Source: a virus (lineage: Duplodnaviria > Caudoviricetes). From it: 54,143 nt of DNA. This document shows, one piece after another, positions 1,776-16,899 of the stretch; position 1 is the stretch's first letter; every line of letters begins with the position of its first letter. Made by a program: the position numbers and the translations under genes. Location: IMG/VR virus record IMGVR_UViG_3300006750_000012, positions 1 through 54,143 of that record, one strand, 5' to 3'. Under the pieces are notes generated by a model. The model saw only the letters and a list, made by a program, of their open reading frames with translations, was not told the DNA's origin and ran no database searches.

Positions 1776-2636
1776 CTATAATCTATTTTCATATTTTTCT
1801 AATCCATCCTTTATTTCATCGTATGCTTTTGGTATAGCATCCCAGTTTTCTGGGTCTAAAATCATTACGTCTATTTCTCTGTTATATAAGTGTGCAAGCC
1901 AACCCTGCAACATCATACATATAATAGGTTTTGGATAATCCTTAAACTCTTGTAATACTACCGGATACCCATTAATATTATAGTTGTATACATCCTTTTT
2001 TGGCACTTTGCGGCTGAAAGCCGCCATTCGCCATTCTCGTAATTCATAAGGACTATCGTAAAACTCATAGTAAGATAAGTCTTGACGTCTAAACTCCGGC
2101 AAGTCCACTAGTGCTTTACCTAGTAGTACTCCCAGCTTTTCATCCTCTAAACTCCAGTCTTCATATTGGATGCCTCGCGCATCCTTGAAAGCATATAGAA
2201 CAAATGGCGTTAACGCGCCAAACCTCCTAAAATCAGGATCTATCTGAGTACCTGCTAGGAGTGTGCTACGAGTAGCCTTAGCGAACATAACTATGATACT
2301 ACGCACGTCCTCCCCAGTCACAGTAACTGTAGTACTATTGTCACCTTCTCCAACTGCGAAGCTTACCTCATCCGGTAAACTATTGGCATCTTCTATTAAT
2401 CTACTAGCAAGATACTTTCCAGTTGAAGCATCCTTAGTTGGATTTAGGGTCTTACTTAGAATGTTCATCATCTTAAGACAGTCCAAATGTGTGAACTTAT
2501 CCTTAGCTTTCAACTTTCCATCTTCCAGTAAGATTTCCCGGCGATTAGTTAGTTCTCCAGCCTCATAAAGCCCGCCTCCGCGGGCAAAGTGGGGCTTGAT
2601 CCTCGGTGCAGATCCTGCTCCAAAGTTTATTTTCAT
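1776..2636 (-). CDS. Conserved T5-like hypothetical protein (286 aa)
   Basis: RFGALTPFVLYAFK..RGIQYEDW and MMLQGW resemble a conserved T5 early hypothetical encoded just inside the terminal repeat (recalled, not searched); AAGGA RBS. Confidence 0.7.
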   Translation of the reverse strand: MKINFGAGSAPRIKPHFARGGGLYEAGELTNRREILLEDGKLKAKDKFTHLDCLKMMNILSKTLNPTKDASTGKYLASRLIEDANSLPDEVSFAVGEGDNSTTVTVTGEDVRSIIVMFAKATRSTLLAGTQIDPDFRRFGALTPFVLYAFKDARGIQYEDWSLEDEKLGVLLGKALVDLPEFRRQDLSYYEFYDSPYELREWRMAAFSRKVPKKDVYNYNINGYPVVLQEFKDYPKPIICMMLQGWLAHLYNREIDVMILDPENWDAIPKAYDEIKDGLEKYENRL

Positions 2637-2857
2637 ATATTTTCCTTGATATTGTTATGAAATAACATTTCCCAGTTACACAGTGTAATTTATTTCTTAG
2701 TATAATTCAAATGCAATTGCCCTTAGAGGGGGAATGTACTGAAAATATACGCGAATTGAAACCGCCACTAGACGAAATTTATACACCTTCCGCAAGCTCC
2801 CGGAAAATTCCTAGTAACGAAATTCGTAATTTTCATACATTCCTTCATGATATAAAT

Positions 2858-2886
2858 ATTATATCACACCTTTAGCATGATGTCAA
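2858..2886 (-). promoter_or_regulatory. sigma70 promoter (leftward)
   Basis: Reverse complement TTGACA-17-TATAAT with A-rich UP element. Confidence 0.85.
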
Positions 2887-2969
2887 TAACTTTTTTTGAG
2901 TGGGTGATATGATCTTGATGTCAAATACGCTATTCGTTTTAGTTACATAAAGGTATGAAAAATTTTTTC

Positions 2970-2998
2970 TTGACAAGTGATGGTAATTTTGATATAAT
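2970..2998 (+). promoter_or_regulatory. sigma70 promoter (rightward, divergent)
   Basis: TTGACA-17-TATAAT. Confidence 0.9.
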
Positions 2999-3008
2999 AT
3001 AGTATGAA

Positions 3009-3275
3009 ATGGAGAACTTTATGAACAATAAACAACTACTTTGGATTTTTACTACTGGCTATTTTAGCGCATGGTTTATTTTTGGTATAAAAGTAGGCGT
3101 GTTCGCTCTAATAGCGCATACGTCTGGTGCATTAGCTTTGCATTACCTAAATATGAATCAGCAAGATAAGATAGAGGAATTGCGCAATGCGTTACATAAC
3201 GCAGTACGTGATGTGGAAGTAAAACAAGGCCAAGACATTTCAGCAGCTCTCGACAAAGACAATAGGTTAAATTAA
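3009..3275 (+). CDS. Hypothetical membrane protein
   Basis: Hydrophobic N-terminal half, follows the promoter. Confidence 0.6.
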   Translation: MENFMNNKQLLWIFTTGYFSAWFIFGIKVGVFALIAHTSGALALHYLNMNQQDKIEELRNALHNAVRDVEVKQGQDISAALDKDNRLN

Positions 3276-3475
3276 TGTTGACTAGAAAGCATTTTTTCAA
3301 CGATCGCGTGCATAGTCTTTTCTTACCTTATCTTTGGAAGTATCGTGTCTGGCGTGATCGTTGGATTATCAATCACCGTATTATTACACCTTGTATAGAT
3401 ATACTTAGGATGATAATGCTTGCCGTTGCTATCGGCTGGTTACTAGCCATGGCAGGTAAAGTTTCGGCTGGTTAA
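3275..3475 (+). CDS. Hypothetical membrane protein
   Basis: TAATG coupling to the upstream gene; C-terminal hydrophobic segment. Confidence 0.5.
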   Translation: MLTRKHFFNDRVHSLFLPYLWKYRVWRDRWIINHRIITPCIDILRMIMLAVAIGWLLAMAGKVSAG

Positions 3476-3798: not shown

Positions 3799-4452
3799 AT
3801 GCGACACATTTGGAGTATAGCAGCAGTAATTGTTTTGGCGGCAGCGGCGGTAATTGCGCAGGCCGAGGTGACTGGCAATATCGGTTGGGATAGTGACTAC
3901 GTTTTCCGTGGCGTACCGCAGAGTGAATCGTCGGCCAGCGGTGGCATCGACTGGGAAGGCGATTCAGGTTTCTACCTGGGTACCTGGGCCGCAGATGTTG
4001 GTGATGGTCTGGAAATCGATTACTACGGTGGCTGGGGGGCCGAAACCGATAGTGGTTTCAGTTATTCCGTCGGCTACACGCTGTATGACTATACCGGCGA
4101 CTTCGATGAGGAATACCAGGAAGTTAATCTGGGTGTCGGCTTTGGTTGGCTCTCGCTGGATATTTCCATAGGTGAATGGGACGGCGACGGGGACGGCGAC
4201 GACTACACCAACTACGAACTAACCGCTGAACGCAATGGCTTCTTCGTAACGCTTGGCAGTTGGGGTGACGACTTTGACGCCGATTACCTCAAGCTGGGTT
4301 ACGCCACCGAGATCGCCGGCATAGATGTGACTAGTTACTACGTGTACAGCAACGCAGCCTTCATTTACGGCAGCGACTCGAACGTGGTCGTTCAGGTCAG
4401 CAAGAGTTTCTCTTTCGAGCAGGTTGCAGATGCTTTTAACGGCACCGAGTAA
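3799..4452 (+). CDS. TorF-family (gcw_chp-like) putative outer-membrane porin
   Basis: Signal peptide; SDYVFRGVPQ, GGIDW, GFYLGTW, EIDYYGGW motifs; visibly GC-richer than its flanks. Confidence 0.8.
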   Translation: MRHIWSIAAVIVLAAAAVIAQAEVTGNIGWDSDYVFRGVPQSESSASGGIDWEGDSGFYLGTWAADVGDGLEIDYYGGWGAETDSGFSYSVGYTLYDYTGDFDEEYQEVNLGVGFGWLSLDISIGEWDGDGDGDDYTNYELTAERNGFFVTLGSWGDDFDADYLKLGYATEIAGIDVTSYYVYSNAAFIYGSDSNVVVQVSKSFSFEQVADAFNGTE

Positions 4453-4484
4453 CGCTTTACGAGCCAGCAAATGGAAAAAATATT

Positions 4485-4934
4485 ATGAAGATATTCCGTT
4501 GGAATAATCCTTATGGTAAATATGCAGTAGTTGCATTTGTAGTTGCATTTGCATTACTATATGTACGTGAGTGTCAGGCCGATGTATGGTTTCAAGCAGG
4601 ATATGGGACTGAAAACAGTTTTAACTTGCTGGAGCCAAAGAACTTGGCTATTGAAGGAGCTTATGTATATAAAGACGATTGGGAAGTGGCTACGGGGTAT
4701 AGTAATATGTGGTATCTTAGTGGTACTCGTGTAGTTAATTACCGATCTTTATTCCTTAACCTAGGATTAGGAGTAAATGAAACTAATGAAAACTTGCCTA
4801 AGTGGTGGAATTTTAGTTTAGGCGCAGGTTTCAATATAAAGAAGTGTAGAGTACAATTCCGACACTTTAGTAATGCAGGAATTGAAAAGCCTAATAGAGG
4901 TGAAAATTGGATACTATGGGGATGTAAAATATGA
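4485..4934 (+). CDS. pagL: PagL-like lipid A 3-O-deacylase (outer-membrane beta-barrel)
   Basis: C-terminal RHFSNAGIEKPNRGEN matches the PagL H-x-S-N-A-G...P-N-x-G catalytic motif; N-terminal signal-like segment. Confidence 0.75.
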   Translation: MKIFRWNNPYGKYAVVAFVVAFALLYVRECQADVWFQAGYGTENSFNLLEPKNLAIEGAYVYKDDWEVATGYSNMWYLSGTRVVNYRSLFLNLGLGVNETNENLPKWWNFSLGAGFNIKKCRVQFRHFSNAGIEKPNRGENWILWGCKI

Positions 4935-5759: not shown

Positions 5760-5824
5760 TCCTGAACCTAAAAGAAACTCGAACCCTTCGCGCATTAATT
5801 GCCTGGCTCCGCCAGCAATCAACA

Positions 5825-6358
5825 ATGCTCGGCTACCTGCTGGCAATCCTAATTACATATTTTGGCTGGATAGGCCGCACTGAGCGAAATATTACAGCAG
5901 AAGAAGGGCTGGGTTATATTTTGGGAATTGTGGGCGCCTCACTTATGGCAGCGCTCTTACTATACCCATTACGAAAGCGTGTCCGCTTCCTGCGCTTTCT
6001 TGGTACAACCAAGCGCTGGTTTTTCTGGCACATGGTATTGGGCATCATTGGCCCGATACTAATTCTGTTTCACAGTAATTTTGCCCTGGGCTCCCTGAAC
6101 TCACGTATCTCTCTATATTGCATGTTATTGGTTTCTGGCAGCGGCCTGATTGGACGATATCTTTACTCACATATACATAACGGATTGTATGGTCGCAAGA
6201 CAACTTTACGTTCGCTAACCAAAAAGGAGCAACGTAATATCGCCAATCTGTACCTGTTTGAACGACTCTTTTCTTTCTGGCACATATTGCATTTACCATT
6301 CTTCTTAATGTTTTGTATTTCTACCATCGTTCACATCTTAGCGGTTCATATGTACTGA
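5825..6358 (+). CDS. Ferric-reductase-like transmembrane (heme b) domain protein
   Basis: LLYPLRKR, WFFWHMVLGIIGP.LILFHS, SGLIGRYLY, WHILHLP, VHILAVH: His-bearing TM helices. Confidence 0.65.
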   Translation: MLGYLLAILITYFGWIGRTERNITAEEGLGYILGIVGASLMAALLLYPLRKRVRFLRFLGTTKRWFFWHMVLGIIGPILILFHSNFALGSLNSRISLYCMLLVSGSGLIGRYLYSHIHNGLYGRKTTLRSLTKKEQRNIANLYLFERLFSFWHILHLPFFLMFCISTIVHILAVHMY

Positions 6359-6418
6359 CCTGAAAGTGTTGCAGCTCGAACATAAGGCGAATATGCAGAT
6401 AGAATAAAAAAATCTGAC

Positions 6419-6447
6419 TTGATTCCCGAGTCAAAGTGTGAGATAAT
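6419..6447 (+). promoter_or_regulatory. sigma70 promoter upstream of ncRNA island
   Basis: TTGATT-17-GATAAT with TG extension. Confidence 0.7.
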
Positions 6448-6478
6448 ATATATAATGGGAAAACAACTCTGAATTAGA

Positions 6479-6967
6479 ATTTTCTCGCGTTCCAGCGAGA
6501 AAATCCATGGTCCCCTCGACAGGCGACCCTAAACTAAAAAGTCCGGGTGCTCTACCACTCGTTACAAGGTAGAGGTAGGTAACTCACTGCGCTAGTTGCC
6601 CCTGGGGCTACAGGGATAAGGTAGTCTAAGGTACGGGGTCCTTACAAAACCCCACTCTTTAATAAAGGCTTGATTAACGAAAGTAAAGTAAGAAGAATAT
6701 CATGTCAAGCCTTTATTAAAGAGTGCAGCGGGAAACCGCCGGGTAAGTTAGAAGTCCCGCAAGGAAAGCGTTTTACTTGCACGCATAAAGATCTAATAAA
6801 GTAAATTGGGAAAGGCGAGTAACGGCCTAGTAGGTCAAACGAAAACGCAATAGCAAAAGTAGTATTGATGGAAAAATAATTACACGGTGAGGGGCCACCT
6901 TAGGTAGGTGCGGTATATCAGCTTCGGCGATCATACCATTAGCCACTAGAAGAAGCCCCATTCTTTA
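6479..6967 (+). ncRNA. Putative large structured non-coding RNA (unclassified)
   Basis: No ORF; 10-bp hairpin 6479-6504, perfect 21-bp inverted repeat 6653-6673/6705-6725, GNRA and cUUCGg tetraloop hairpins. Confidence 0.55.
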
Positions 6968-6995
6968 TTTTACAGTAATAAACAGGAAACTTTTT

Positions 6996-7190
6996 ATGCG
7001 AGCGCACGAACAAATGATGCAAGAGGTAATACAATACCTTGATGCAAAAGTAGAAACTCGAGCATATGCAAAAATGTTAACTAGTGCGTATACTAACTAC
7101 GAGCAAGAACTTAGTAATATGCAGCGCGAACTCAATGATGCAGAAAATGCACTCACGATTTTTGAAAACGCGATTTTTGAAAACGAATGA
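6996..7190 (+). CDS. Hypothetical coiled-coil protein
   Basis: AGGA RBS; 64 aa, helical character. Confidence 0.55.
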   Translation: MRAHEQMMQEVIQYLDAKVETRAYAKMLTSAYTNYEQELSNMQRELNDAENALTIFENAIFENE

Positions 7191-7441
7191 TTAGAGTAAT
7201 CAAATTAGAACGCGGTACGTTAGATACGTGGCTAGACTACAGTGTGACCACGTATGATAACTTTACGCAAGCACGTGACGATGCACGTTTTGCGGGATAT
7301 TGCTTAAATGCTCCAGTTCATATGCTTGAGGAAGACATTCTAATAGATGCTACATATATTTCGACATTTGCTCCCAAAAAGGTTGAGTCTTGGCGAAATA
7401 GTACAGCCCAAGGAGATTGGGACGACAAGAACCGAAAATAG
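7187..7441 (+). CDS. Hypothetical protein
   Basis: ATGA overlap with the upstream gene. Confidence 0.55.
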   Translation: MIRVIKLERGTLDTWLDYSVTTYDNFTQARDDARFAGYCLNAPVHMLEEDILIDATYISTFAPKKVESWRNSTAQGDWDDKNRK

Positions 7442-7460
7442 TGAAACAGGGTACCTAATT

Positions 7461-8010
7461 CCTACTGAGGCGTTTGACATCATCCGGCCCAAATAAATAT
7501 CAATTAAATAGGGAGACGATAGTCGCTAAACGTCTATAAATAAAAGAGATACTGTACTGGGCCAGTATATGTCCACCTGAGGCGTGAGATAAAGCCCGAG
7601 TATATATCAGGTAGTCTATGGCAATCGACATAAAAACTTTGCTACCAGAGAATTGATAGTAGGTCCTGGTATATTGAAGTGAACTATCATTAAATCCAAG
7701 TATACAGCTGAAATAATAGACTAAGGTACTTGGTTAGTGGCGCTGCCTAGCGCAGAAAACAAGTAAGGTGTCTGTCCGAGACATTAAATCGAGATGTGAT
7801 AAGGTCCCACTCTAAAAGACCTGTACGTCGACAACGTCCTGAGCATGACAAAAAGCTGCTTAAGTCTTGTGAATCATACGCATCCAAGCCAGTGCTTCTG
7901 GAAGTAACCGGAGGAAATACACACTGAGGTTCTCCTGGTCTGTCCTTAAAAGATCAGGACTATTATACAAGCTAGTTGCTCTCAGAAGGTTCTGACGATC
8001 AGTGGCAAGA
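7461..8010 (+). ncRNA. Putative ncRNA island: tandem H-type pseudoknots and hairpins
   Basis: At least six S1-S2-S1'-A-rich-S2' units; no ORF. Confidence 0.55.
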
Positions 8011-9207
8011 CGAAAGGAACAGGTGATGAATAAAAATATTCTGGGGATTCATGGGAATTTGCTGCGCTCTGATGTGCGTTATGGTTCTGATGAACTCGTG
8101 AAAGCATGGGATCGTAATGGGTTTCATTATCTCCGCTTGCCAGGTGGTAGTTCAAATCATTGGTATCAGTGGAAAACAGGAATATTCCACGAAAACAACT
8201 GGAGTTTTGTTGGGGATACGTCTGAGAAAGATCGGTACATGATTTTTGGGGCTAACAAGGCTCGTGAAACGCACGGGGCATATCTTGTTAATGACATGAT
8301 TGATTTTCTGATTGAAACAGGGACTGAGTATTCTTATGTTGTAAACGCCGCAGAGCCTTTTCAGAATCATCGTGATTTTCTGAAGCACTGGAAAGCCAGT
8401 GGTTTAGACTTGAAGAACGTTGAGTATGGGAATGAGATGTACACACCGCAGAAATATGCGGAATTTGAAAATGTGCAGATGTATACTGACAAAGCTAAGA
8501 ATTTTAACTATGTGCTTAAACAAGATTTTCCTGATGCTAAGTTGGGACTTACTGTGTCGATGGAGGCTTTCAAACCTCATAAGCCGGGAGCTAAACGGGA
8601 CGAATTATTACACTGGGATGAAGGTATCCGCAATCAAGAGTGGCGCGATGCGAACATTATTCACTTTTATGCGACTCCCGCTGTCAATTCAGCGTGGGGG
8701 AAATGGTCAGCAAATGAAGTATCCTATTACACTGCGCTGAATCATTGGAATAAGTATTTTGAAGAAGCAGTTAGCACATGGGATGACAAACCAATATGGG
8801 TAACTGAGTGGGGAGTCTATCCGTGGCCGCGAACACAGGGAGAACCAGAACTCTACTCATACTTGAGTTCCAAGTATAATCATTTGTTTGTTGCTCATGC
8901 GCTTATCGAAATGATGCTGGAACCGCGCATCACGCTAGCTGCCTATCATTCATGGACACAGCTACTGGAAGGTAGCGGTATAAACGCAGAGTTGGCAGAA
9001 CCTGGTTGTAACGCAACAAAGGAAGTGTTCAAAGTATTTGGTGAACTTACCAACGAGACACCGGAAAGAGTTGGTATACGAGGACACGGCTGTACGGGAG
9101 TTAAGCTCGGAAACACTTTGATTCTGGTCAACAGGATGGATCAAAAAAATATTGTCGAGGGCTGCGAAGTTCCCGCTCATTCAGTTATTGTCCGAAAATA
9201 TGTGTAG
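8002..9207 (+). CDS. Clan GH-A TIM-barrel glycoside hydrolase (GH51/GH44/GH79-like); likely start 8026
   Basis: LRLPGGS..WYQW, VEYGNE (acid/base), IWVTEWG (nucleophile). Confidence 0.75.
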   Translation: MARRKEQVMNKNILGIHGNLLRSDVRYGSDELVKAWDRNGFHYLRLPGGSSNHWYQWKTGIFHENNWSFVGDTSEKDRYMIFGANKARETHGAYLVNDMIDFLIETGTEYSYVVNAAEPFQNHRDFLKHWKASGLDLKNVEYGNEMYTPQKYAEFENVQMYTDKAKNFNYVLKQDFPDAKLGLTVSMEAFKPHKPGAKRDELLHWDEGIRNQEWRDANIIHFYATPAVNSAWGKWSANEVSYYTALNHWNKYFEEAVSTWDDKPIWVTEWGVYPWPRTQGEPELYSYLSSKYNHLFVAHALIEMMLEPRITLAAYHSWTQLLEGSGINAELAEPGCNATKEVFKVFGELTNETPERVGIRGHGCTGVKLGNTLILVNRMDQKNIVEGCEVPAHSVIVRKYV

Positions 9208-9226
9208 TAACATGGGGGTTGGAAAA

Positions 9227-9712
9227 ATGACATGGGAATTAATCAAAATAAAAATACTGTTGTTATTGCTGTTGCCGTTGTGTGTAGTGGCTCAAGCACC
9301 GGTCTACGATACAGATGGCGATGGAATAGTTGATCGTAACGACCCGTGTGTTTTCGTCGCAAATGAGCGTTGCGCCGATTTCAATGGTAACGGGTTTGTG
9401 AATTTCGCAGATCTTGCTTATATGAAATCGGTGTTTTCTACCGATGATGGTGTTGCGGATTTGAATGATGATGGGGTGGTGAACTTTGGCGATCTTAGTT
9501 TATTGAAAATGCAAATGTTCCAATTCGCGCTGTCTTGCAACACTTACGCGACTGCGCATATCGGGCATCGCGACGTATGGCAAATTGCTTGTCATGGGGC
9601 AATCGAACAAAGCGTGTATTTCGGGCATTCGGAGTGTAGTGTTGAAACGCATCGAATCAACGGTGATACATATTTGCATTGCATGGTTACGTTCGGGTCT
9701 GGGGACTGGTAG
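9227..9712 (+). CDS. Secreted protein with TSP3 repeat and dockerin-type Ca-binding repeats
   Basis: Signal peptide; DTDGDGIVDRNDPC; ADFNGNGFVNFADL / ADLNDDGVVNFGDL. Confidence 0.7.
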   Translation: MTWELIKIKILLLLLLPLCVVAQAPVYDTDGDGIVDRNDPCVFVANERCADFNGNGFVNFADLAYMKSVFSTDDGVADLNDDGVVNFGDLSLLKMQMFQFALSCNTYATAHIGHRDVWQIACHGAIEQSVYFGHSECSVETHRINGDTYLHCMVTFGSGDW

Positions 9713-9896
9713 TAAAAGTTGCCCACAGGGTACCAAACATAGTAATAAACAGGAAATTTTTTTAAATGGGACTAGAATTATTTAACATAGTAATAGGTTC
9801 GCTATTAGTAGCCGGGGCCCTAACATGCTTTGCAAGACTTGTGGCGAGCCACGGAAAGGATAAACGTAAACGTAAACGCGTTTAAGCAAAGTATGA

Positions 9897-9971
9897 GGGG
9901 ACGTAGTTAAGAGGTTTAACATCTGGCTTTTAACCAGTCGACGGCGGGTTCAATTCCCCCCGCCCCTACCA
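9897..9971 (+). tRNA. tRNA-Lys(UUU), a few stem mismatches
   Basis: Cloverleaf, loop CT-TTT-AA, TTCAATT, encoded CCA. Confidence 0.75.
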
Positions 9972-9996
9972 CTTTATAGCATACGAAAAATTTTTC

Positions 9997-10025
9997 TTGA
10001 CAAGTATGGTCATTTTTGATATAAT
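9997..10025 (+). promoter_or_regulatory. sigma70 promoter upstream of tmRNA
   Basis: TTGACA-17-TATAAT. Confidence 0.9.
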
Positions 10026-10139
10026 ATATAAAATGGGAAAAAACCTACAATGATTGAATTACAAAAATGGCTTAAGGAAACCGATGCAGAATATGATAAA
10101 TTCTGTGAAAATTCCTTACCGATTGGATGAAGCAATAAC

Positions 10140-10378
10140 GCCTTGTGCGGACGCGGATAGCATTATTCCGCCTTCTCCACCAAATAAATATCTAAGAATT
10201 AATCGAGAAATACGCAGTCCAAATTAAAGGGGAAGAACAGATTCGACGGATAAGTAACGGGTTGTGGACAATCACGTACGAAAGTACAAAACATTAAACG
10301 CAAATGATGAAACATTCGCACTTGCTGCCTAAGGGTTAGCTGAGCTTGGCGGCTCGCTTGTAAACAGAAGTAGCCGCC
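10140..10378 (+). ncRNA. ssrA: Two-piece circularly permuted tmRNA, tag (A)ANDETFALAA*
   Basis: Acceptor piece ends CTTCTCC-A-CCA (10182). Coding piece starts GGGGAAG...GATTCGAC (10229) and gives a G3.U70 pair. Tag ORF 10300-10332. 5' boundary approximate. Confidence 0.9.
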
Positions 10379-10379
10379 T

Positions 10380-10533
10380 CCATTAAACAAATGTTTCAAT
10401 GTCTCAGGCTACCGGATTAGGGTTGACCACCCTCCTGCTTAGTCAAAGTATAGATTTAGTCACCTATATTGGGAGCGCACCGTGTAAAACTTGACGGAAA
10501 GGCGAACCTAGCTCTGGAACATTTCTTTAATGG
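10380..10533 (+). ncRNA. Putative structured RNA closed by an ~18-bp stem
   Basis: 10380-10398 pairs with 10515-10533; three internal hairpins. Confidence 0.45.
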
Positions 10534-10623
10534 ATGTATAGTTTCTTATTTAATCTATAAAAATAAGTGTCAAGTTCTATGTGCTAAAGTAAAGATAATA
10601 GGAATTACACAAAGGAGCATGAA

Positions 10624-10788
10624 ATGACTGATAGTAGATGGTCGCGTCTGGAACTTCAGCGGGAGCGGGAGTCTAGGTGTGGTGGGCGTCGCAGCTTGCA
10701 AGATTGCGGTCATTGGGAGTGTCTGTGTGGTACTCTGAATGAAGAAGATCGGAGAACTTGTCAGCATTGTGGTGAGTCTGGCGACTAA
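10624..10788 (+). CDS. 54-aa zinc-finger microprotein (RanBP2-like; not in ORF track)
   Basis: AAGGAG RBS; WECLCGTLNEEDRRTCQHCG. Confidence 0.65.
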   Translation: MTDSRWSRLELQRERESRCGGRRSLQDCGHWECLCGTLNEEDRRTCQHCGESGD

Positions 10789-10819
10789 TAGAATTTGAAA
10801 GGAGTAGGGTGCCAAATAT

Positions 10820-10904
10820 GGATAGGCTGGGCATTGGCGAGCCCACGTGGCTGTAAACCACACGCCTTAGAGCTGTAATGGTTCAACTCCATTCCTATCC
10901 ACCA
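10820..10904 (+). tRNA. tRNA-Tyr(GUA)
   Basis: GGATAGG/CCTATCC acceptor, CT-GTA-AA loop, long variable arm, CCA. Confidence 0.85.
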
Positions 10905-10909
10905 ATTTA

Positions 10910-10982
10910 ACAGTAGGCGTAATGGCGCACTAAGCGGACTCCAAACCCGTTATGCTGGGCTCGATACCTAGGTAGGGTGCCA
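10910..10982 (+). pseudogene. Degenerate tRNA-Trp(CCA)-like element
   Basis: CT-CCA-AA loop, T-arm and CCA present; acceptor strands do not pair. Confidence 0.55.
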
Positions 10983-11009
10983 ATTTACAGTAGTAAACAG
11001 GAAATTATT

Positions 11010-11198
11010 TTGATTAGTGTAAGAGAAAGACTACCTAAACCCAATCAACCATGTAAAGTATATGTTCTGGATTATTTAAAAAAGAACTTTGAAGGAAAGA
11101 AGTTTAAGTTTATAACATATAGTGATGGTGGATATTTTTGGGATGATAGTGAAACTTGTTTACAAGACTCAGAAGTAACACATTGGAATCCTTTTTAA
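11010..11198 (+). CDS. DUF551-like phage protein
   Basis: ISVRERLP...VTHWNP; TTG start after AGGA. Confidence 0.6.
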   Translation: MISVRERLPKPNQPCKVYVLDYLKKNFEGKKFKFITYSDGGYFWDDSETCLQDSEVTHWNPF

Positions 11199-11209
11199 GA
11201 AGATAATAA

Positions 11210-11860
11210 GTGTTAAACGTATTAAACCTATATGCAGGAGTTGGTGGCAACCGCAAACTCTGGACCGACGTAGACGTCACAGCAATAGAAAGCGATCCAA
11301 AGATAGCAAGTGTTTATCAGAAACTTTTTCCAGATGACACTGTATTTATTGAAGATGCGCATCAGTTCTTATTAGAAACTCATGATCTGGTAGACTTCGT
11401 TTGGTCAAGTCCCCCGTGCCAATCGCACTCTCGTATGATGAAGGCTACTAGACATGATCTAAGACGTTATCCTGATATGGCACTATACGAAGAGATATTA
11501 TTTCTTCAGAACTTTTTCAAAGGCGGATGGGTAGTAGAAAACGTAAAACCCTATTACGAACCTTTGATAAAACCTACAGCAATTATAGGTAGACATTATT
11601 TCTGGAGTAACTTCCCAATTACAGCAGACGATGTTAAGCGACCTCCTGGATTTATTAATAAGTCTACAGTAGCAGGTAAACTAGAATTGATGGATTGGCT
11701 TGATATTCATTACGAAGAGAAGTTATATTACAAGGGGAACCATTGTCCAGCCCAAGTGCTGCGCAACTGCGTTCATCCCTTAATAGGAAAACAGATTTTA
11801 GAGAATTATAGGGTTGGGATGCTGTGTGGCGCAGGTTCTCGCTGTGACCGAGTTAACTGA
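11210..11860 (+). CDS. DNA cytosine-5 methyltransferase (short phage type)
   Basis: Motif I LNLYAGVGG, motif IV SPPCQ, motif VI ENV. Confidence 0.85.
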   Translation: MLNVLNLYAGVGGNRKLWTDVDVTAIESDPKIASVYQKLFPDDTVFIEDAHQFLLETHDLVDFVWSSPPCQSHSRMMKATRHDLRRYPDMALYEEILFLQNFFKGGWVVENVKPYYEPLIKPTAIIGRHYFWSNFPITADDVKRPPGFINKSTVAGKLELMDWLDIHYEEKLYYKGNHCPAQVLRNCVHPLIGKQILENYRVGMLCGAGSRCDRVN

Positions 11861-11887
11861 TGGGTTCGAATCCCTCCCTCCCCACCA
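11811..11887 (+). tRNA. tRNA-His(GUG)-like, degenerate acceptor; overlaps the MTase 3' end
   Basis: CT-GTG-AC loop, GGTTCGAATCC, CCA; two acceptor mismatches. Confidence 0.5.
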
Positions 11888-11902
11888 AATTAGAGGTACA
11901 CT

Positions 11903-12073
11903 ATGAGTGTAGAAGATAATACTCAACAAGCTAAGCGATTTATTAAGATTGTTGGCCCAATTACATTAATTGCTGTTATAGTCTTTTTAGTCGTAGCAGC
12001 AGGCAGAGAATATGCTGGTTGCGAATGGCCTTGGGAAAATGTAGATGGTACTGATACGTACCTCGTGGACTAA
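11903..12073 (+). CDS. Small single-TM protein (56 aa, not in track)
   Basis: GAGGT RBS; IVGPITLIAVIVFLVVAAG. Confidence 0.65.
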   Translation: MSVEDNTQQAKRFIKIVGPITLIAVIVFLVVAAGREYAGCEWPWENVDGTDTYLVD

Positions 12074-12157
12074 CGCGATATAATTGATTAGTAGGTCGTG
12101 ACCTAAACCCTGATACCCGAGGGTCTGAATGGCAATATCGGGTTACTAAATTCTGAC

Positions 12158-12186
12158 TTGAAATAGTGAGTAGAACTTGCTATAAT
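12158..12186 (+). promoter_or_regulatory. sigma70 promoter
   Basis: TTGAAA-17-TATAAT. Confidence 0.85.
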
Positions 12187-12206
12187 ATATAAAATGGAAA
12201 ATCAAA

Positions 12207-12282
12207 CAGAGCATAGCTGAGCTTGGTATAGCATGGCGTTTGGGGCGCTAAGACGAGGGTTCGAATCCTTCTGTTCTGACCA
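12207..12282 (+). tRNA. tRNA-Pro(UGG)
   Basis: CAGAGCA/TGTTCTG acceptor, TT-TGG-GG loop, TTCGAAT, CCA. Confidence 0.9.
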
Positions 12283-12336
12283 ATTAAGGAGGTAACGACA
12301 TAATGAGTAAATTGTAATTAAATACAGGAGAAAATT

Positions 12337-12606
12337 ATGAGCGATACTTATCGACATAAAGTATTGGGCAAGTATAAAAGAATCCGTGATGAGGACTTTT
12401 GTGCAGGTTGGGAGTATTTAAGCACCAACCACCCGGGCTTTATGTATACCTGGTGGAATTCTACACCTTCGTGGTGGAATAATGAATTTCATACCAGACC
12501 AGCGAGAACGCAGACTCGCAATACTCTGCGCAAGATCAATCTAGATAACTATGAGGATGACTGGGATTTTCCCAACTATAAAAAGCCTCATATTTATTAC
12601 TGGTAA
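12337..12606 (+). CDS. Hypothetical phage protein (Trp-rich)
   Basis: AGGAG RBS; TPSWWN..HTRP.R ... KKPHIYYW. Confidence 0.7.
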   Translation: MSDTYRHKVLGKYKRIRDEDFCAGWEYLSTNHPGFMYTWWNSTPSWWNNEFHTRPARTQTRNTLRKINLDNYEDDWDFPNYKKPHIYYW

Positions 12607-12714
12607 GACTATAGCAGGTAGTTTCCCTGTGCTAAGCAAACCGTAAGCATTTGAGAGCGTGAACAATGTGATCCTACAGTGGGACGATCTTTAAACTCAA
12701 CCACACAATTTTAT

Positions 12715-12786
12715 ATCCCGAGCGACAGGACGCAGGTGAGGCTACGAACCACGCCCTTGTAGGTTCGATTCCCTAGGACTCCGCCA
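12715..12786 (+). pseudogene. Degenerate or chimeric tRNA-Arg(ACG)-like element
   Basis: CT-ACG-AA loop, GGTTCGATT, CCA; 3' acceptor strand does not match the 5' strand. Confidence 0.5.
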
Positions 12787-12791
12787 AATAT

Positions 12792-12868
12792 GGATCGGTC
12801 GTCTAATGGTTCAGGACGCGTTGGCTTTCAACCTCCGAATCAGGGTTCGAACCCCTGTCGATTCACCA
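12792..12868 (+). tRNA. tRNA-Glu(UUC), weak anticodon stem
   Basis: GGATCGG/TCGATTC acceptor, CT-TTC-AA loop, perfect T-arm, CCA. Confidence 0.65.
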
Positions 12869-12953
12869 AATATAGGTAACAGTGAATGATGGGTCGCACC
12901 TATCGTACTGGGGTCAGTTGAAGCGGGATGAGACCTCCCCGCCTTTTATTTAA

Positions 12954-13030
12954 TGTGGTGAAGCTTAAGTGGCATAAGCAACTGGCTGATAACCGGTAGA
13001 CAGGTGGTTCAAGTCCACTCACCACGACCA
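12954..13030 (+). tRNA. tRNA-Ile(GAU)
   Basis: Full cloverleaf, CT-GAT-AA loop, CCA. Confidence 0.9.
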
Positions 13031-13036
13031 AACAAT

Positions 13037-13112
13037 GCTAGTGTGCGCATCGGGGTATGCGAACCGCCTGTCTAGCGGATGTAGGAGGGTTCGAGTCCCT
13101 TCACTAGCGCCA
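13037..13112 (+). tRNA. tRNA-Asp(GUC)
   Basis: GCTAGTG/CACTAGC acceptor, CT-GTC-TA loop, G73, CCA. Confidence 0.85.
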
Positions 13113-13129
13113 AATTTAAAAGGATACTT

Positions 13130-13723
13130 ATGAAAGTAGATATGTCCGTTCCTTTTGATAGATCATTTAATAGAAATTTTGATTTATCTGAGAGAACCAT
13201 ATTACAAGCTACAATGTCAGAAACAGCTTCTATATTTGAAAATATACCTTATAGCTGGGATAATGCTGATCAAGGTACAGGATTTGGAGATATTGGGGGA
13301 GATATATGGTCTTGCTGGTCATTCCTAAATGTAACAATACCTCAAGATGTAACAATAACAAAGGCCACAATGGTTTGGAAGCCTAGCACAGATCCTGACA
13401 CAATTAGTGCTGATCTTCTCTTTGATTGTGAAAAAGATGCTACTCCGGTAGATGTCACAAATACTACTCCTCTTAATAGACCCTACCAGGATTCTTTTGT
13501 GTGGACAACCGCTAACGATACTATTACAGGACTGACATTAACAGGAGATGAGGAATATACTTATAATATAGTAATAGATCCAGCGATTTTTCAAGAATGT
13601 ATAGATTTAGGCGGTTGGAATAGAAAATTTAACCTGAGAGGTAGAGCTCCAGATACCCCTTCTAATACGTGGGTAGGACAGAGAGATATTGCATCTTTGA
13701 TTGTGGAGTATTACGAAAATTAA
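13130..13723 (+). CDS. Acidic beta-rich protein (DNRLRE-like IPx..I.KA.L motif)
   Basis: FLNVTIPQDVTITKATM resembles FDPISTIPQGTTIKQAWL in 44811..46841. Confidence 0.55.
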   Translation: MKVDMSVPFDRSFNRNFDLSERTILQATMSETASIFENIPYSWDNADQGTGFGDIGGDIWSCWSFLNVTIPQDVTITKATMVWKPSTDPDTISADLLFDCEKDATPVDVTNTTPLNRPYQDSFVWTTANDTITGLTLTGDEEYTYNIVIDPAIFQECIDLGGWNRKFNLRGRAPDTPSNTWVGQRDIASLIVEYYEN

Positions 13724-13724
13724 A

Positions 13725-13768
13725 GCCCCATTGGTGGAATTGGCAGACACGCTGGGTTTAGTTCCCAG
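13725..13768 (+). pseudogene. 5' half of tRNA-Leu(UAG), lacking T-arm and 3' strand
   Basis: GCCCCAT-TGGTGGAATTGGCAGACAC-G-CTGGG-TTTAGTT-CCCAG, then unrelated sequence. Confidence 0.7.
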
Positions 13769-13790
13769 TTCCCAGCCCCCGTAGAACGGA

Positions 13791-13866
13791 GCAGTGATGG
13801 TGTTCAATGGTAGCATTACAGTCTTCCAAACTGACGGTATGGGTTCGAGTCCCATTCACTGTTCCA
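13791..13866 (+). tRNA. tRNA-Gly(UCC)
   Basis: GCAGTGA/TCACTGT acceptor, CT-TCC-AA loop, U73, CCA. Confidence 0.9.
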
Positions 13867-14017: not shown

Positions 14018-14545
14018 ATGTCTTTTAAATATTTAGTAGCTGCCAGTTTGCTAGCACTTAGTATGAGTGCTAATGCGGATATTTATATTGGTGGTGAAGT
14101 AAATAGTACGGCAGTTGACTCTAATTCTCTAGAAGATATTGTCAACGACTTCTCTGATCGTTCAGCTGGATATGGTGCAATTATTGGATATAAGTTTCCA
14201 ATGCCATTCGCAGTTCAGGCCAAGTACATAGCTCCCGAAGAGCTTGATGATCAAGGCCTTTCAATTGATGCAGATGGGTGGTTAGTAAGTGGACTAGGAT
14301 TCATTCCTTTAGGGAATGCTTGGTCTATTTACGGAGAAGCAGGATACTTTGATTTCTCTGGAGATATTGAGATTGGTAGTGAAGAAGCTTCACAGTCTTT
14401 ATCTGGAGAGAGTGGAGTATTGTTCGGAGCAGGTGTTAACTGGAACATCACCGGAGGACTAAACACTCGACTTGGCGCTACTCTATACGATGTAGAAGGT
14501 GCCAGTGTTAATCAGTTCAACCTAGGCGTACTGTACGAGTTTTAA
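14018..14545 (+). CDS. OmpA-like 8-stranded outer-membrane beta-barrel
   Basis: Signal peptide AXA; amphipathic strands; C-terminal LGVLYEF beta-signal. Confidence 0.8.
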   Translation: MSFKYLVAASLLALSMSANADIYIGGEVNSTAVDSNSLEDIVNDFSDRSAGYGAIIGYKFPMPFAVQAKYIAPEELDDQGLSIDADGWLVSGLGFIPLGNAWSIYGEAGYFDFSGDIEIGSEEASQSLSGESGVLFGAGVNWNITGGLNTRLGATLYDVEGASVNQFNLGVLYEF

Positions 14546-15098: not shown

Positions 15099-15362
15099 AT
15101 GAACGTTCTAAAAATTGATGATTTCCACTATATTTGGTATGCTGGTGGGAAGTGGCCGTATACGATAAGTTTGGAAGATATTTTTCCATACTTACAAAGA
15201 GAACCTATTATACCCAATTACCCCGAGCATATGCAGAAGCGAGGATTAGAAAAGGTTCCATGGGAACGGCTTCCAGAACCTATCAAGAGATGCATAGTGG
15301 CAGCACAAAGCACTTTCTTAGAGTCGGTAAAAGAGAAACAGGACGAAGAAAAAGACAAATAA
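15099..15362 (+). CDS. Hypothetical protein
   Basis: GGGA RBS, ends at the terminator. Confidence 0.6.
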   Translation: MNVLKIDDFHYIWYAGGKWPYTISLEDIFPYLQREPIIPNYPEHMQKRGLEKVPWERLPEPIKRCIVAAQSTFLESVKEKQDEEKDK

Positions 15363-15392
15363 AAAAATGCCGCTGAGAAGCGGCATTTTTTT
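15361..15392. terminator. Bidirectional Rho-independent terminator
   Basis: A7-TGCCGCT-gaga-AGCGGCA-T7. Confidence 0.9.
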
Positions 15393-15400
15393 ATTTGAAC

Positions 15401-15429
15401 TTGAAATTTTCAGTTAAATAGCGTATAAT
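15401..15429 (+). promoter_or_regulatory. sigma70 promoter
   Basis: TTGAAA-17-TATAAT. Confidence 0.85.
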
Positions 15430-15452
15430 ATATATTCAAATGGAGATTTAAC

Positions 15453-16211
15453 ATGAAATTTCAAGTAATGAGCGATCTACACCTTGAGTTTTGTGGCTAC
15501 AATAGGGAGGTTATCATTCCAGCCGACGTTGACGTAGTCATCTTAGCTGGGGATGTAGGTACTAAAGTAGATAGAACAATGGCCTGGATCAAAAATTGGA
15601 TGCAGGACAAGCAAGTAGTTATGGTTGCTGGCAACCATGAGTACTATGGTGATAAACTTCAAAAAACTGATTTTGAGTTTAAAGAATATGACGTCAAGTA
15701 TGATTGGTTTCACTTCCTACAAGATGGGTATTACACAGAGGTGCTTGGTCAGGGATTTGCTGGTGGTACATTGTGGACAGACTTTAAAAAGTTTGATCCA
15801 CTTATACAAGCACATTGTGGCCTAACAATGCGAGATTACGATGTAATCAGGGCACCCCCTAATTATAGGAGATTACAACCTGCGGACACGTATCTTATTC
15901 ATCAAGATACTGTAAAGCATTTAGATGATGTATTATATGCCCACCCTGAAACTATTGTAGTTACTCACACAGCTCCACATGCGTTGTGTGTACACGATAA
16001 GTACAAAGATGATTGGATGACTAATCATGCTTACTACACCGATCTTGATTGGATGTTAGAAAAGTATGATATTCCTTTCTGGTTCCATGGACATATGCAC
16101 GATACTCATGACATTACCGTTCATAATACAAGGATCATATGTAATCCTTATGGATACGATGGACATGAAGTAAACCCATTATTTAATCCTAATTTAATAT
16201 TGGAGATCTAA
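15453..16211 (+). CDS. Calcineurin-like metallophosphoesterase
   Basis: SDLHLE, LAGD, AGNHEYY, THTAP, HGHMH. Confidence 0.9.
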   Translation: MKFQVMSDLHLEFCGYNREVIIPADVDVVILAGDVGTKVDRTMAWIKNWMQDKQVVMVAGNHEYYGDKLQKTDFEFKEYDVKYDWFHFLQDGYYTEVLGQGFAGGTLWTDFKKFDPLIQAHCGLTMRDYDVIRAPPNYRRLQPADTYLIHQDTVKHLDDVLYAHPETIVVTHTAPHALCVHDKYKDDWMTNHAYYTDLDWMLEKYDIPFWFHGHMHDTHDITVHNTRIICNPYGYDGHEVNPLFNPNLILEI

Positions 16212-16605: not shown

Positions 16606-16734
16606 ATATATACTGGAAAAACAAATTGCTTAACCAGTAAAATAATAAGTATAATAATTCTCCGTCCGTTCCTGGTCACCGGACTAGTTTAGTAGAACTA
16701 GTAAAAACCAGGTTCTTTTCTTTTTGGAGAACAT

Positions 16735-16899
16735 ATGAAAGAAGAGTATGATTTTGAAGATATGCCAGAGGTAATAAGAGCAAAAGACCTATTACCTTGG
16801 TACTACAGAATAGCTTTGTGGATTGCAAATCACTTAGTTTTATATTCAGTCTTAGTTGCTACCCTTGGGTTTGCGGCAGGCTGGTTTTTGCACAATTAG
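16735..16899 (+). CDS. Small TM protein (54 aa, not in track)
   Basis: GGAG RBS; C-terminal TM. Confidence 0.6.
   Translation: MKEEYDFEDMPEVIRAKDLLPWYYRIALWIANHLVLYSVLVATLGFAAGWFLHN

Follow-up and report, generated by a model that had tools for sequence, protein, structure and literature searches.

A gene-free stretch with a perfect 21-bp stem behind a putative phage promoter: a possible leader of two small genes in an uncultured marine phage

Leaders processed by RNase III are known from early phage transcripts, among them the T7 early transcripts and the lambda N leader, and the RNase III sites of T7 and lambda contain internal loops. Phages and prophages also encode the large, ornate RNAs ROOL and GOLLD, in phages often in the vicinity of transfer RNA (tRNA) islands (10.1101/2024.12.08.627333). 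The T5 record annotates seven stable RNAs without known function in the tRNA region of that phage (RNAI, RNAIII, RNAIV, RNA1, RNA2, RNA2H and RNA3), and the injection-stop region of T5-like phages is described as large, untranslated, palindrome-rich and equipped with eight DnaA boxes (10.1101/866236; T5 record). Here we describe a gap of 637 bases (6359-6995) between an open reading frame (ORF) of 177 amino acids (ORF177, 5825-6358) and one of 64 amino acids (ORF64) in IMGVR_UViG_3300006750_000012, an IMG/VR virus record (54,143 bases) with an estimated completeness of ~48%; the record in its full length is the window to which all positions refer. Judged by its gene content, the source is a distant, uncultured, marine T5-like phage. 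Our tentative preference, at somewhat less than even confidence, is that 6454-6995 precedes, as an untranslated leader, the two genes of an early unit, ORF64-ORF84, and contains three elements: a hairpin near its 5' end, a stem of RNase III type and a hairpin resembling a terminator. A first-pass annotation, made by a model from the letters alone, had read 6479-6967 as a large structured RNA with a possible conformational switch.

The stretch 6359-6995 is non-coding, as that annotation had held: stops occur in all six frames, the longest ORF has 44 amino acids, and none of the eight stop-to-stop fragments gave a meaningful Pfam or PHROG match. A 21-codon ORF near the 5' end has no family match either and shows no good ribosome-binding site by eye. 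Upstream, the promoter at 6419 (P6419; 6419-6447) scores 9/12 with TG on its hexamers. It aligns with the perfect-consensus promoter 9997 from the -10 through ~35 transcribed bases, and has the box TATAAT-ATATAnAATGGaAAA in common with promoters 2970, 12158, 15401 and 16577. The layout of this family consists of an A/T-rich upstream tract, TTGACA, 17 nt, TG-n-TATAAT and the conserved downstream box ATATAnAATGGaAAA, with 2970, 9997 and 16577 as its perfect-consensus members. We regard P6419 as genuinely belonging to the sigma-70-type promoter family of this phage; the stretch is very probably transcribed rightward from it, with a predicted transcript start near A6454. The sharing of the -10 and the downstream box within the family thus bears out the earlier placement of the element directly downstream of a promoter at 6419. 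In two family cases, the downstream box itself provides the GGAG of the ribosome-binding site of the following gene.

Within the stretch only two elements exceed chance, a perfect 10-bp hairpin and a perfect 21-bp stem, both already noted in the first-pass annotation and both beyond shuffles. The 10-bp hairpin has a folding energy of -13.7 kcal/mol (z-score against shuffles -5.97, with 0 of 200 shuffles as good) and pair probabilities of 0.8-1.0. For the 21-bp stem the values are -30.8 kcal/mol and z -9.48, again with 0 of 200 shuffles as good, and its 21-nt repeat is the longest of 15 hairpin-forming repeat pairs found across the whole window. No T-run follows this stem. RNase III substrates have at least 20 bp, about two turns, of uninterrupted double-stranded RNA, and the 21 pairs plus a U-G found here are long enough, in agreement with the earlier suggestion of RNase III release; the stem is therefore a candidate RNase III site, at which cleavage is predicted. 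In this sense, the stretch resembles the T7 and lambda leaders, with a long and unbroken double-stranded stem ahead of the genes of an early transcript. It differs from the T7 and lambda sites in that the candidate stem is perfect over 21 bp and closes a large loop.

Towards its 3' end the stretch holds a third, irregular hairpin, marginally terminator- or attenuator-like to judge by its G-C base and its tail. The GGGGC/GCCCC base directly precedes AUUCUUUAUUUU; the tail reads UUCUUUAUUUU at 6961-6971, and the ribosome-binding motif starts three bases later. The same layout recurs behind promoter 16577, where a hairpin (16671-16713, z -3.14) is followed by UUCUUUUCUUUUU, then by GGAG and by the ATG at 16735. 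The fact that the third hairpin and its U-tract abut the shared ribosome-binding motif, together with this recurrence, speaks for the leader reading, and leader terminators may be a habit of the phage; two cases are few. Leader attenuators are comparable in having a G-C-based hairpin and a U-tract between promoter and first ribosome-binding site. They differ in that the hairpin here is long, irregular and uncalled by the terminator scan, and in that the alternative pairing put forward by the first-pass annotation is far too weak. In the minimum-energy fold of 16612-16737, the upstream UUCUCCG is paired with the ribosome-binding site.

The 16-bp motif that had been listed at 6974 reads as a translation-initiation region. 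Its core is AGTAATAAACAGGAAA plus a T-rich spacer, and its copies do recur ahead of start codons near 9767 and 11010, so that the motif is common to three small genes; in addition, TAAACAGGAAA with at most one mismatch was counted 10 times against 2.3 +/- 1.6 expected. ORF64 and ORF84 are the first genes past the promoter 6419, 540 bases downstream. Neither has a Pfam or PHROG family, and ORF84 has no relative besides itself. No strong independent promoter was seen for the pair. Since the standard terminator scan called no terminator on the plus strand in 6450-8000, read-through into ORF64-84 is possible.

Under the leader reading, host RNA polymerase would start near 6454 at P6419 (-35 at 6419, TG-extended -10 at 6442) and would transcribe ~540 gene-free nt before the ribosome-binding motif just ahead of ORF64 (ATG at 6996) and ORF84. 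Host RNase III would cut at the 6653-6725 stem and leave a 5' piece of ~200 nt and a 3' piece of ~250 nt. The hairpin at 6891-6959, with its five G-C base pairs, would serve as a leaky terminator or attenuator and so control the amount of transcription that continues into ORF64-84, and would also give the untranslated RNA its 3' end. The start site, the RNase III cutting, the termination and the stability of the pieces are steps that we infer. If the stretch is a leader only, it belongs to ordinary phage gene control, as a tidy example of a promoter family combined with an RNase III-type stem and a leader terminator.

Several observations weigh against this reading. Hexamer matches of 9/12 arise ~56 times per 20 kb in shuffles. 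In energy, 10 of 200 shuffles equal the third hairpin (-25.3 kcal/mol, z -1.89), which makes it marginal in this respect too; it goes uncalled in the standard terminator scan, and the full-length ensemble prefers a long-range helix, 6512-6517/6889-6894 (p 0.85-0.89), over its base. For a compact phage, 540 nt make a long leader, and this suggests a function beyond three hairpins. Moreover, the stretch has seven GGGG/CCCC runs versus 4.1 +/- 1.5 in dinucleotide shuffles, 5.6% of which reach seven; of 105 tiles of equal size across the window, a single one reaches this count, and the tiles with the tRNAs and the transfer-messenger RNA (tmRNA) follow with five. In its GGGG/CCCC composition, the stretch is thus nearer to stable-RNA genes than to an ordinary leader.

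Table 1. Positions of the stretch, its elements and the other phage features discussed here.
Feature	Position	Strand	Remarks
Promoter module (putative)	6400-6467	+	A-rich upstream tract, -35 TTGATT 6419-6424, TG-extended -10 GATAAT 6442-6447, conserved box ATATATAATGGGAAAACAAC
10-bp perfect hairpin, 6-nt loop	6479-6504	+	arms 6479-6488/6495-6504; ~+26 to +51 of the predicted transcript
5' segment	6505-6652	+	pseudoknot-like pairings, e.g. UAAGG/CCUUA with GGGGU/ACCCC at 6627-6653
21-codon ORF (ATG to TAG)	6507-6572	+	inside the putative leader; overlaps the 5' strand of the predicted long-range helix
Perfect 21-bp stem, 22 pairs with closing U-G	6653-6725	+	arms 6653-6673/6705-6725, 31 nt apart; purine-rich loop of 29-31 nt
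3' segment	6726-6890	+	gcgg-GAAA-ccgc hairpin 6728-6739, cc-GCAA-gg, GCGUUUU/AAAACGC
Irregular 69-nt hairpin	6891-6972	+	base GGGGC 6891-6895 / GCCCC 6955-6959; inner UUCG hairpin
Translation-initiation motif AGTAATAAACAGGAAACTTTTT with ORF64 ATG	6974-6998	+	copies 9741-9762, 10984-11010
ORF64 and overlapping ORF84	6996-7190 and 7187-7441	+	genes preceded by the putative leader
Parallel leader, ~120 nt	16612-16737	+	behind perfect promoter 16577; ATG 16735
Promoter family members	2970, 6419, 9997, 12158, 15401, 16577	+	
Promoter family member	2886	-	
tRNA genes (n=8)	9897-13866		
Permuted (two-piece) tmRNA	10121-10332		Rfam RF04321, 75.5 bits vs gathering score 47
T5-like gene set			thymidylate synthase, NAD-dependent ligase, DnaB-like helicase, DNA polymerase I, SbcC-like nuclease, ribonucleotide reductase
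Tail fibre, 1,418 amino acids		opposite to replication genes	
Accessory genes	3799-4934 and 14018-14545		Gcw_chp family protein, PagL-like lipid A deacylase fragment, OmpA-like beta-barrel protein

A possible, if somewhat unlikely, alternative is that the stretch encodes a large, structured non-coding RNA that stands on its own and represents a new class. This RNA would run from P6419 to the hairpin and U-tract at 6891-6972 (~515 nt) or would consist of the ~250-nt 3' RNase III piece, and it would be part of the stable-RNA set of the phage. The density of GGGG/CCCC runs, similar to that of the tRNA and tmRNA tiles, favours it, as do the promoter, the lack of genes and of a known family, and the terminator-like end at 6972. 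Like ROOL and GOLLD, the stretch is phage-encoded, several hundred nt long, gene-free and placed a few kb from a tRNA island, so that it shares the phage origin and the common vicinity of that kind of RNA. It differs from both in matching neither covariance model and in running straight into a ribosome-binding site and two genes. Furthermore, those RNAs are defined by covariation over many homologues, whereas no homologue of the stretch was found, hence no covariation either. The T5 stable RNAs offer a second comparison, since they also belong to a T5-like phage, are promoter-driven and lie in an early region with tRNA genes. They are shorter (73-172 nt versus ~500 nt) and stand among the tRNAs, whereas the stretch lies 2.9 kb before the first tRNA, and they have no sequence similarity to it (best E 0.41 on 36 kb). 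That the stretch is immediately followed by a standard ribosome-binding motif and two genes, with no independent strong promoter seen, also counts against a free-standing RNA.

The fold itself is where the first-pass annotation went furthest. Its description of the elements is accurate, but the ornate fold with a switch that it inferred is more than the sequence can support. The pseudoknot-like units that it placed at 6509-6543 and 6631-6653 exist as pairings but are not above chance: the segment 6505-6652 folds like shuffles (z 0.05), the pseudoknot-like segments 6505-6560 and 6586-6656 have z -0.46 and +0.44, and the eight H-type pseudoknot candidates at five places compare with 4.3 +/- 3.1 in 200 shuffles, figures reached by 11% and 7.5% of them. 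Likewise, the elements of the proposed ~250-nt multibranch domain are present, with GAAA at 6732-6735, GCAA at 6759-6762, UUCG at 6923-6926 and GCGTTTT 6768-6774 facing AAAACGC 6842-6848, but the fold is not better than shuffles (6726-6967, z -0.55 / -0.73; 6726-6850, z -1.01). Hairpins with GNRA or UNCG loops and at least two, three or four pairs are as numerous in 9%, 69% and 31% of 500 shuffles. Beyond the two hairpins, then, no part folds better than shuffles, and the elements cited for ~490 nt as one ornate fold, pseudoknots and tetraloops included, are at chance level. The z-scores of the whole region, -3.28 on the plus strand and -3.80 on the minus strand, owe their size to the two hairpins and give no indication of the strand.

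These statistics have to be read together with their positive controls. In a sliding z-score scan, the real tmRNA and tRNAs of the window score -1.4 to +1.5 and are therefore not flagged, and a test of ensemble diversity fails to flag them in the same way. Because the controls fail, folding statistics cannot refute a fold; they remove the positive argument for an ornate one without refuting it, and in this respect the stretch fares as real stable RNAs do. The predicted ensemble gives pair probabilities of 0.85-0.96 to a closing helix, 6454-6459/6957-6962, and to the long-range helix 6512-6517/6889-6894, which speaks for the large RNA. As to the conformational switch, the alternative pairing of TAAAGAGTG (6717-6725) with CATTCTTTA (6959-6967) does exist, with -7.1 kcal/mol, but it faces -30.8 kcal/mol in the 21-bp stem; the two are not comparable, and we rejected a riboswitch-like equilibrium between them. 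The segments 6649-6661 and 6955-6967 are alike in 11 of 13 bases, which by our own estimate is about what chance gives in 500 nt.

Membership in a known family was addressed with Rfam 15, whose 4227 models include RNase P, tmRNA, group I and group II introns, ROOL and GOLLD. The first-pass annotation had called the RNA unclassified, and searches with Infernal-type family models agree, since no known family matches. At gathering score 6359-6995 has no Rfam match, and at E<=10 the sole matches in the region 6300-7100 were to PyrG_leader (minus strand, E 5.4, 20.3 bits against 65) and, inside ORF64, to SNORD24 (E 7.4). Single-model searches of the stretch with RF00010 (RNase P) and RF02032 (GOLLD) gave none at E<=10, and one with RF01998 (group-II-D1D4-1) gave nothing. 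The single search with RF03087 (ROOL) was also empty, as it was on control genomes, so that the Rfam-wide search is the better test for ROOL. With RF00023 (tmRNA), matches fell only at known tRNA and tmRNA places; ARAGORN with relaxed thresholds found nothing at 80% and made spurious calls only at 70%. By eye, AAAGTCCGGG (6538-6547) bears a short resemblance to the conserved core motif of RNase P, with no partner strand for P4 seen and no score from the model. A group I or group II intron was rejected: the alignment of the upstream ORF with its homologues continues to their last residue, ORF64 has its own ribosome-binding motif, and no Rfam intron model matches. That one of these families (RNase P RNA, tmRNA, group I or II intron, ROOL or GOLLD) has a divergent member in the stretch is hardly credible: the phage does encode tRNAs and a tmRNA, which would suit such an RNA, yet neither the Rfam search nor the separate searches at E<=10 found one, and the flanking genes are whole, which leaves no exons to join.

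A broad search for relatives returned nothing from which covariation could be assessed, as no homologue was found. With blastn, the stretch had no match in 50,697 phage records, and the tmRNA region, used as a marker for relatives, had none in them either. Against positions 1-36000 of T5, neither blastn (word size 7) nor nhmmer did better than E 0.41, and no match fell on the stable RNA genes. The stretch is absent from the 25 longest T5-like IMG/VR records, where only matches of 14-30 nt occurred (E >=0.02), and nhmmer found nothing at E<=10 over 272 fetched loci (1.9 Mb). Four IMG/VR pattern scans were made, three of them empty; the lone match of the fourth was rejected as chance, as it falls at the terminator and gene start of an unrelated phage. 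The flanking proteins led to no relatives. The DNA polymerase, whose identity to that of T5 and its relatives is only 42%, has as its closest relative in the protein collection a protein of 71% identity on a 3.3-kb contig, with the others at 60% or less. Among the matches listed, polymerase loci reach 49% full-length in IMG/VR, with one partial at 54%, and in metagenomes 52% full-length and 58-59% on 3-kb contigs; none of the relatives listed (52-71% identity, mostly on short contigs) reaches the syntenic place. Paralogy with the second gap discussed below or with the tmRNA region was rejected (best local alignment 22, against 20.7 +/- 2.4 in shuffles).

Marine sequencing runs contain near-identical DNA; the listing has 14 rows from 13 studies, and the source may be among them. 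In the four runs examined there are 0 or 1 changes over the covered parts; other runs with small shares were left out of account. One of the runs is a metatranscriptome, represented by the contigs of one RNA library, in which a 194-nt contig lies at 6747-6940 with one change (T6806C) and a 427-nt contig starts at 7454 and extends into the second gene-free gap, 7442-8001. A third contig, at 6300-6360, continues identical to a bacterial contig described below, so that it belongs to the gene of the host and not to that of the phage. The uncovered parts, 6361-6746 and 6941-7453 (including ORF64-84), were not used as evidence. Host and phage sequence is thus present in an RNA library; this is presence only, and implies nothing on transcription, strand, ends or level. 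The contig inside the 3' part fits both the leader reading and the large-RNA alternative. T6806C, the sole variant, would disrupt an A-U pair in a weak predicted hairpin and counts against the large RNA. That the stretch, or its ~250-nt 3' part, is a new large RNA class in the stable-RNA toolkit (tRNAs and permuted tmRNA) of a deep-branching marine T5-like lineage is unlikely in our judgement. If a folded RNA is nevertheless true, it would add a new class to the few large phage RNAs near tRNA islands without known function, and would provide a marine model for them that infects Gammaproteobacteria. The gap 7442-8001 could then be a second such RNA.

A DNA-level element is a further alternative, in which the stretch would be a counterpart of the T5 injection stop, an origin or an operator, with 21-bp arms that are bound by a protein or extruded as a cruciform. 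A perfect repeat is equally expected for DNA recognition and for RNA. The arms exactly flank a weak promoter-like pair, TTAACG-18-TATCAT (6674-6703), although this pair is a 9/12 match and as such common by chance. In T5-like phages, an untranslated region rich in inverted repeats and palindromes ends the first-step-transfer DNA (10.1101/866236; T5 record). The stretch shares with that region its large untranslated extent, its palindromes and its place in the left part of a T5-like genome, and differs in lacking DnaA boxes, repeat arrays and neighbouring dmp, A1 or A2. Indeed, the DnaA box (TTWTNCACA) occurs 0 times in 6359-8001 and three times in the whole window. Tandem or multiple direct repeats are absent from the stretch, and those of 6000-8300 amount to two short two-copy repeats (15-nt and 11-nt units) outside it, at 7156-7185 and 7490-7510. 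There are only two notable inverted repeats, versus dozens in T5, and dmp, A1 and A2 have no homologues in the window, which, at ~48% completeness, may not include the true terminal repeat. We consider a DNA-level role highly unlikely.

The gene upstream of the stretch bears on its origin. ORF177 belongs to a widespread family of ~300-amino acid membrane proteins with 2,269 representatives at E<=0.001 and no Pfam model. A contig of a Gammaproteobacteria metagenome-assembled genome (L022, positions 2449-3321) matches phage DNA at 5773-6360, with 99.6% identity over 5773-6225 and 97.8% over 6223-6360. This contig carries 282 extra bases between the two matching parts, which amounts to an internal deletion in the phage copy, and its homology stops at 6360, 2 bases past the ORF177 stop. 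Judging by this identity, ORF177 is a host gene that was captured recently by the phage and lost an internal piece afterwards, and it gives a lead to the host of this uncultured phage, within Gammaproteobacteria. The ~300-amino acid homologues align to 5780-6250 and then to 6224-6355, reaching their last residue. Since ORF177 keeps its natural C-terminus, the gap is not its decayed tail, a candidate that we rejected. A host origin of the stretch was rejected as well, as it is absent from the two genomes with the closest ORF177 copies (best E 0.86); 401 genomes belonging to that order yielded just 3 short matches (29-41 nt, E 0.003-0.009 per genome), roughly as many as chance would give.

This mosaic neighbourhood suits an explanation that we find improbable, namely that the stretch is a functionless spacer between gene cassettes in a fast-changing accessory region, with only a promoter, a hairpin or two and the ribosome-binding site of the next gene. 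It would fit the captured gene just upstream, with its high identity and its abrupt end at 6360, and the fact that ORF84 and a 401-amino acid protein are without relatives beyond themselves, save one 33% match. It would also fit the second gap of 560 nt that follows at 7442-8001 and the chance level of most of the cited structure. Against it, a perfect 21-bp stem and membership in a promoter family are unlikely in junk, and the GGGG/CCCC runs are enriched. The near-identical copies, with 0 or 1 change in four runs, give no sign of decay, a comparison that has no power. The second gap lies directly after ORF84 and has a z-score of -1.1; against Rfam at E<=10 it gave nothing beyond a 13-bit noise match.

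The tRNA genes and the tmRNA lie 2.9-7 kb downstream, with the first tRNA (9897) 2.9 kb past the 3' end of the stretch, near to it and not adjacent. A perfect-consensus promoter (9997-10025) stands ahead of the permuted tmRNA (region 9997-10540), whose tag reads by eye ANDETFALAA. The two bacterial genomes with the closest copies of the captured gene have ordinary one-piece tmRNAs (226 and 172 bits). A permuted tmRNA in a phage whose likely hosts have a one-piece tmRNA, together with the very recently captured host gene, adds a translation and decoding angle to this phage.

Other features of the surroundings were also noted. The accessory genes of outer-membrane type listed in Table 1 are accompanied by a G+C-richer patch (0.54 at 4000-4450). 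A 186-amino acid protein (9152-9712) has dockerin or EF-hand-like calcium-binding repeats; it is preceded by the 401-amino acid protein, whose single relative, of 33% identity, was found among 5.8 billion proteins. The similarity of a 216-amino acid ORF (11210-11860) to C-5 cytosine DNA methyltransferases is confined to their N-terminal part (residues 2-88 of a 324-position profile). This ORF ends within tRNA-His (11811-11887) and so may be a truncated gene. Finally, a 21-nt inverted repeat of 86% complementarity (15399-15466) brackets promoter 15401 and the start of a metallophosphoesterase gene, and just upstream of it lies a 19-bp perfect two-way terminator (15356-15397).

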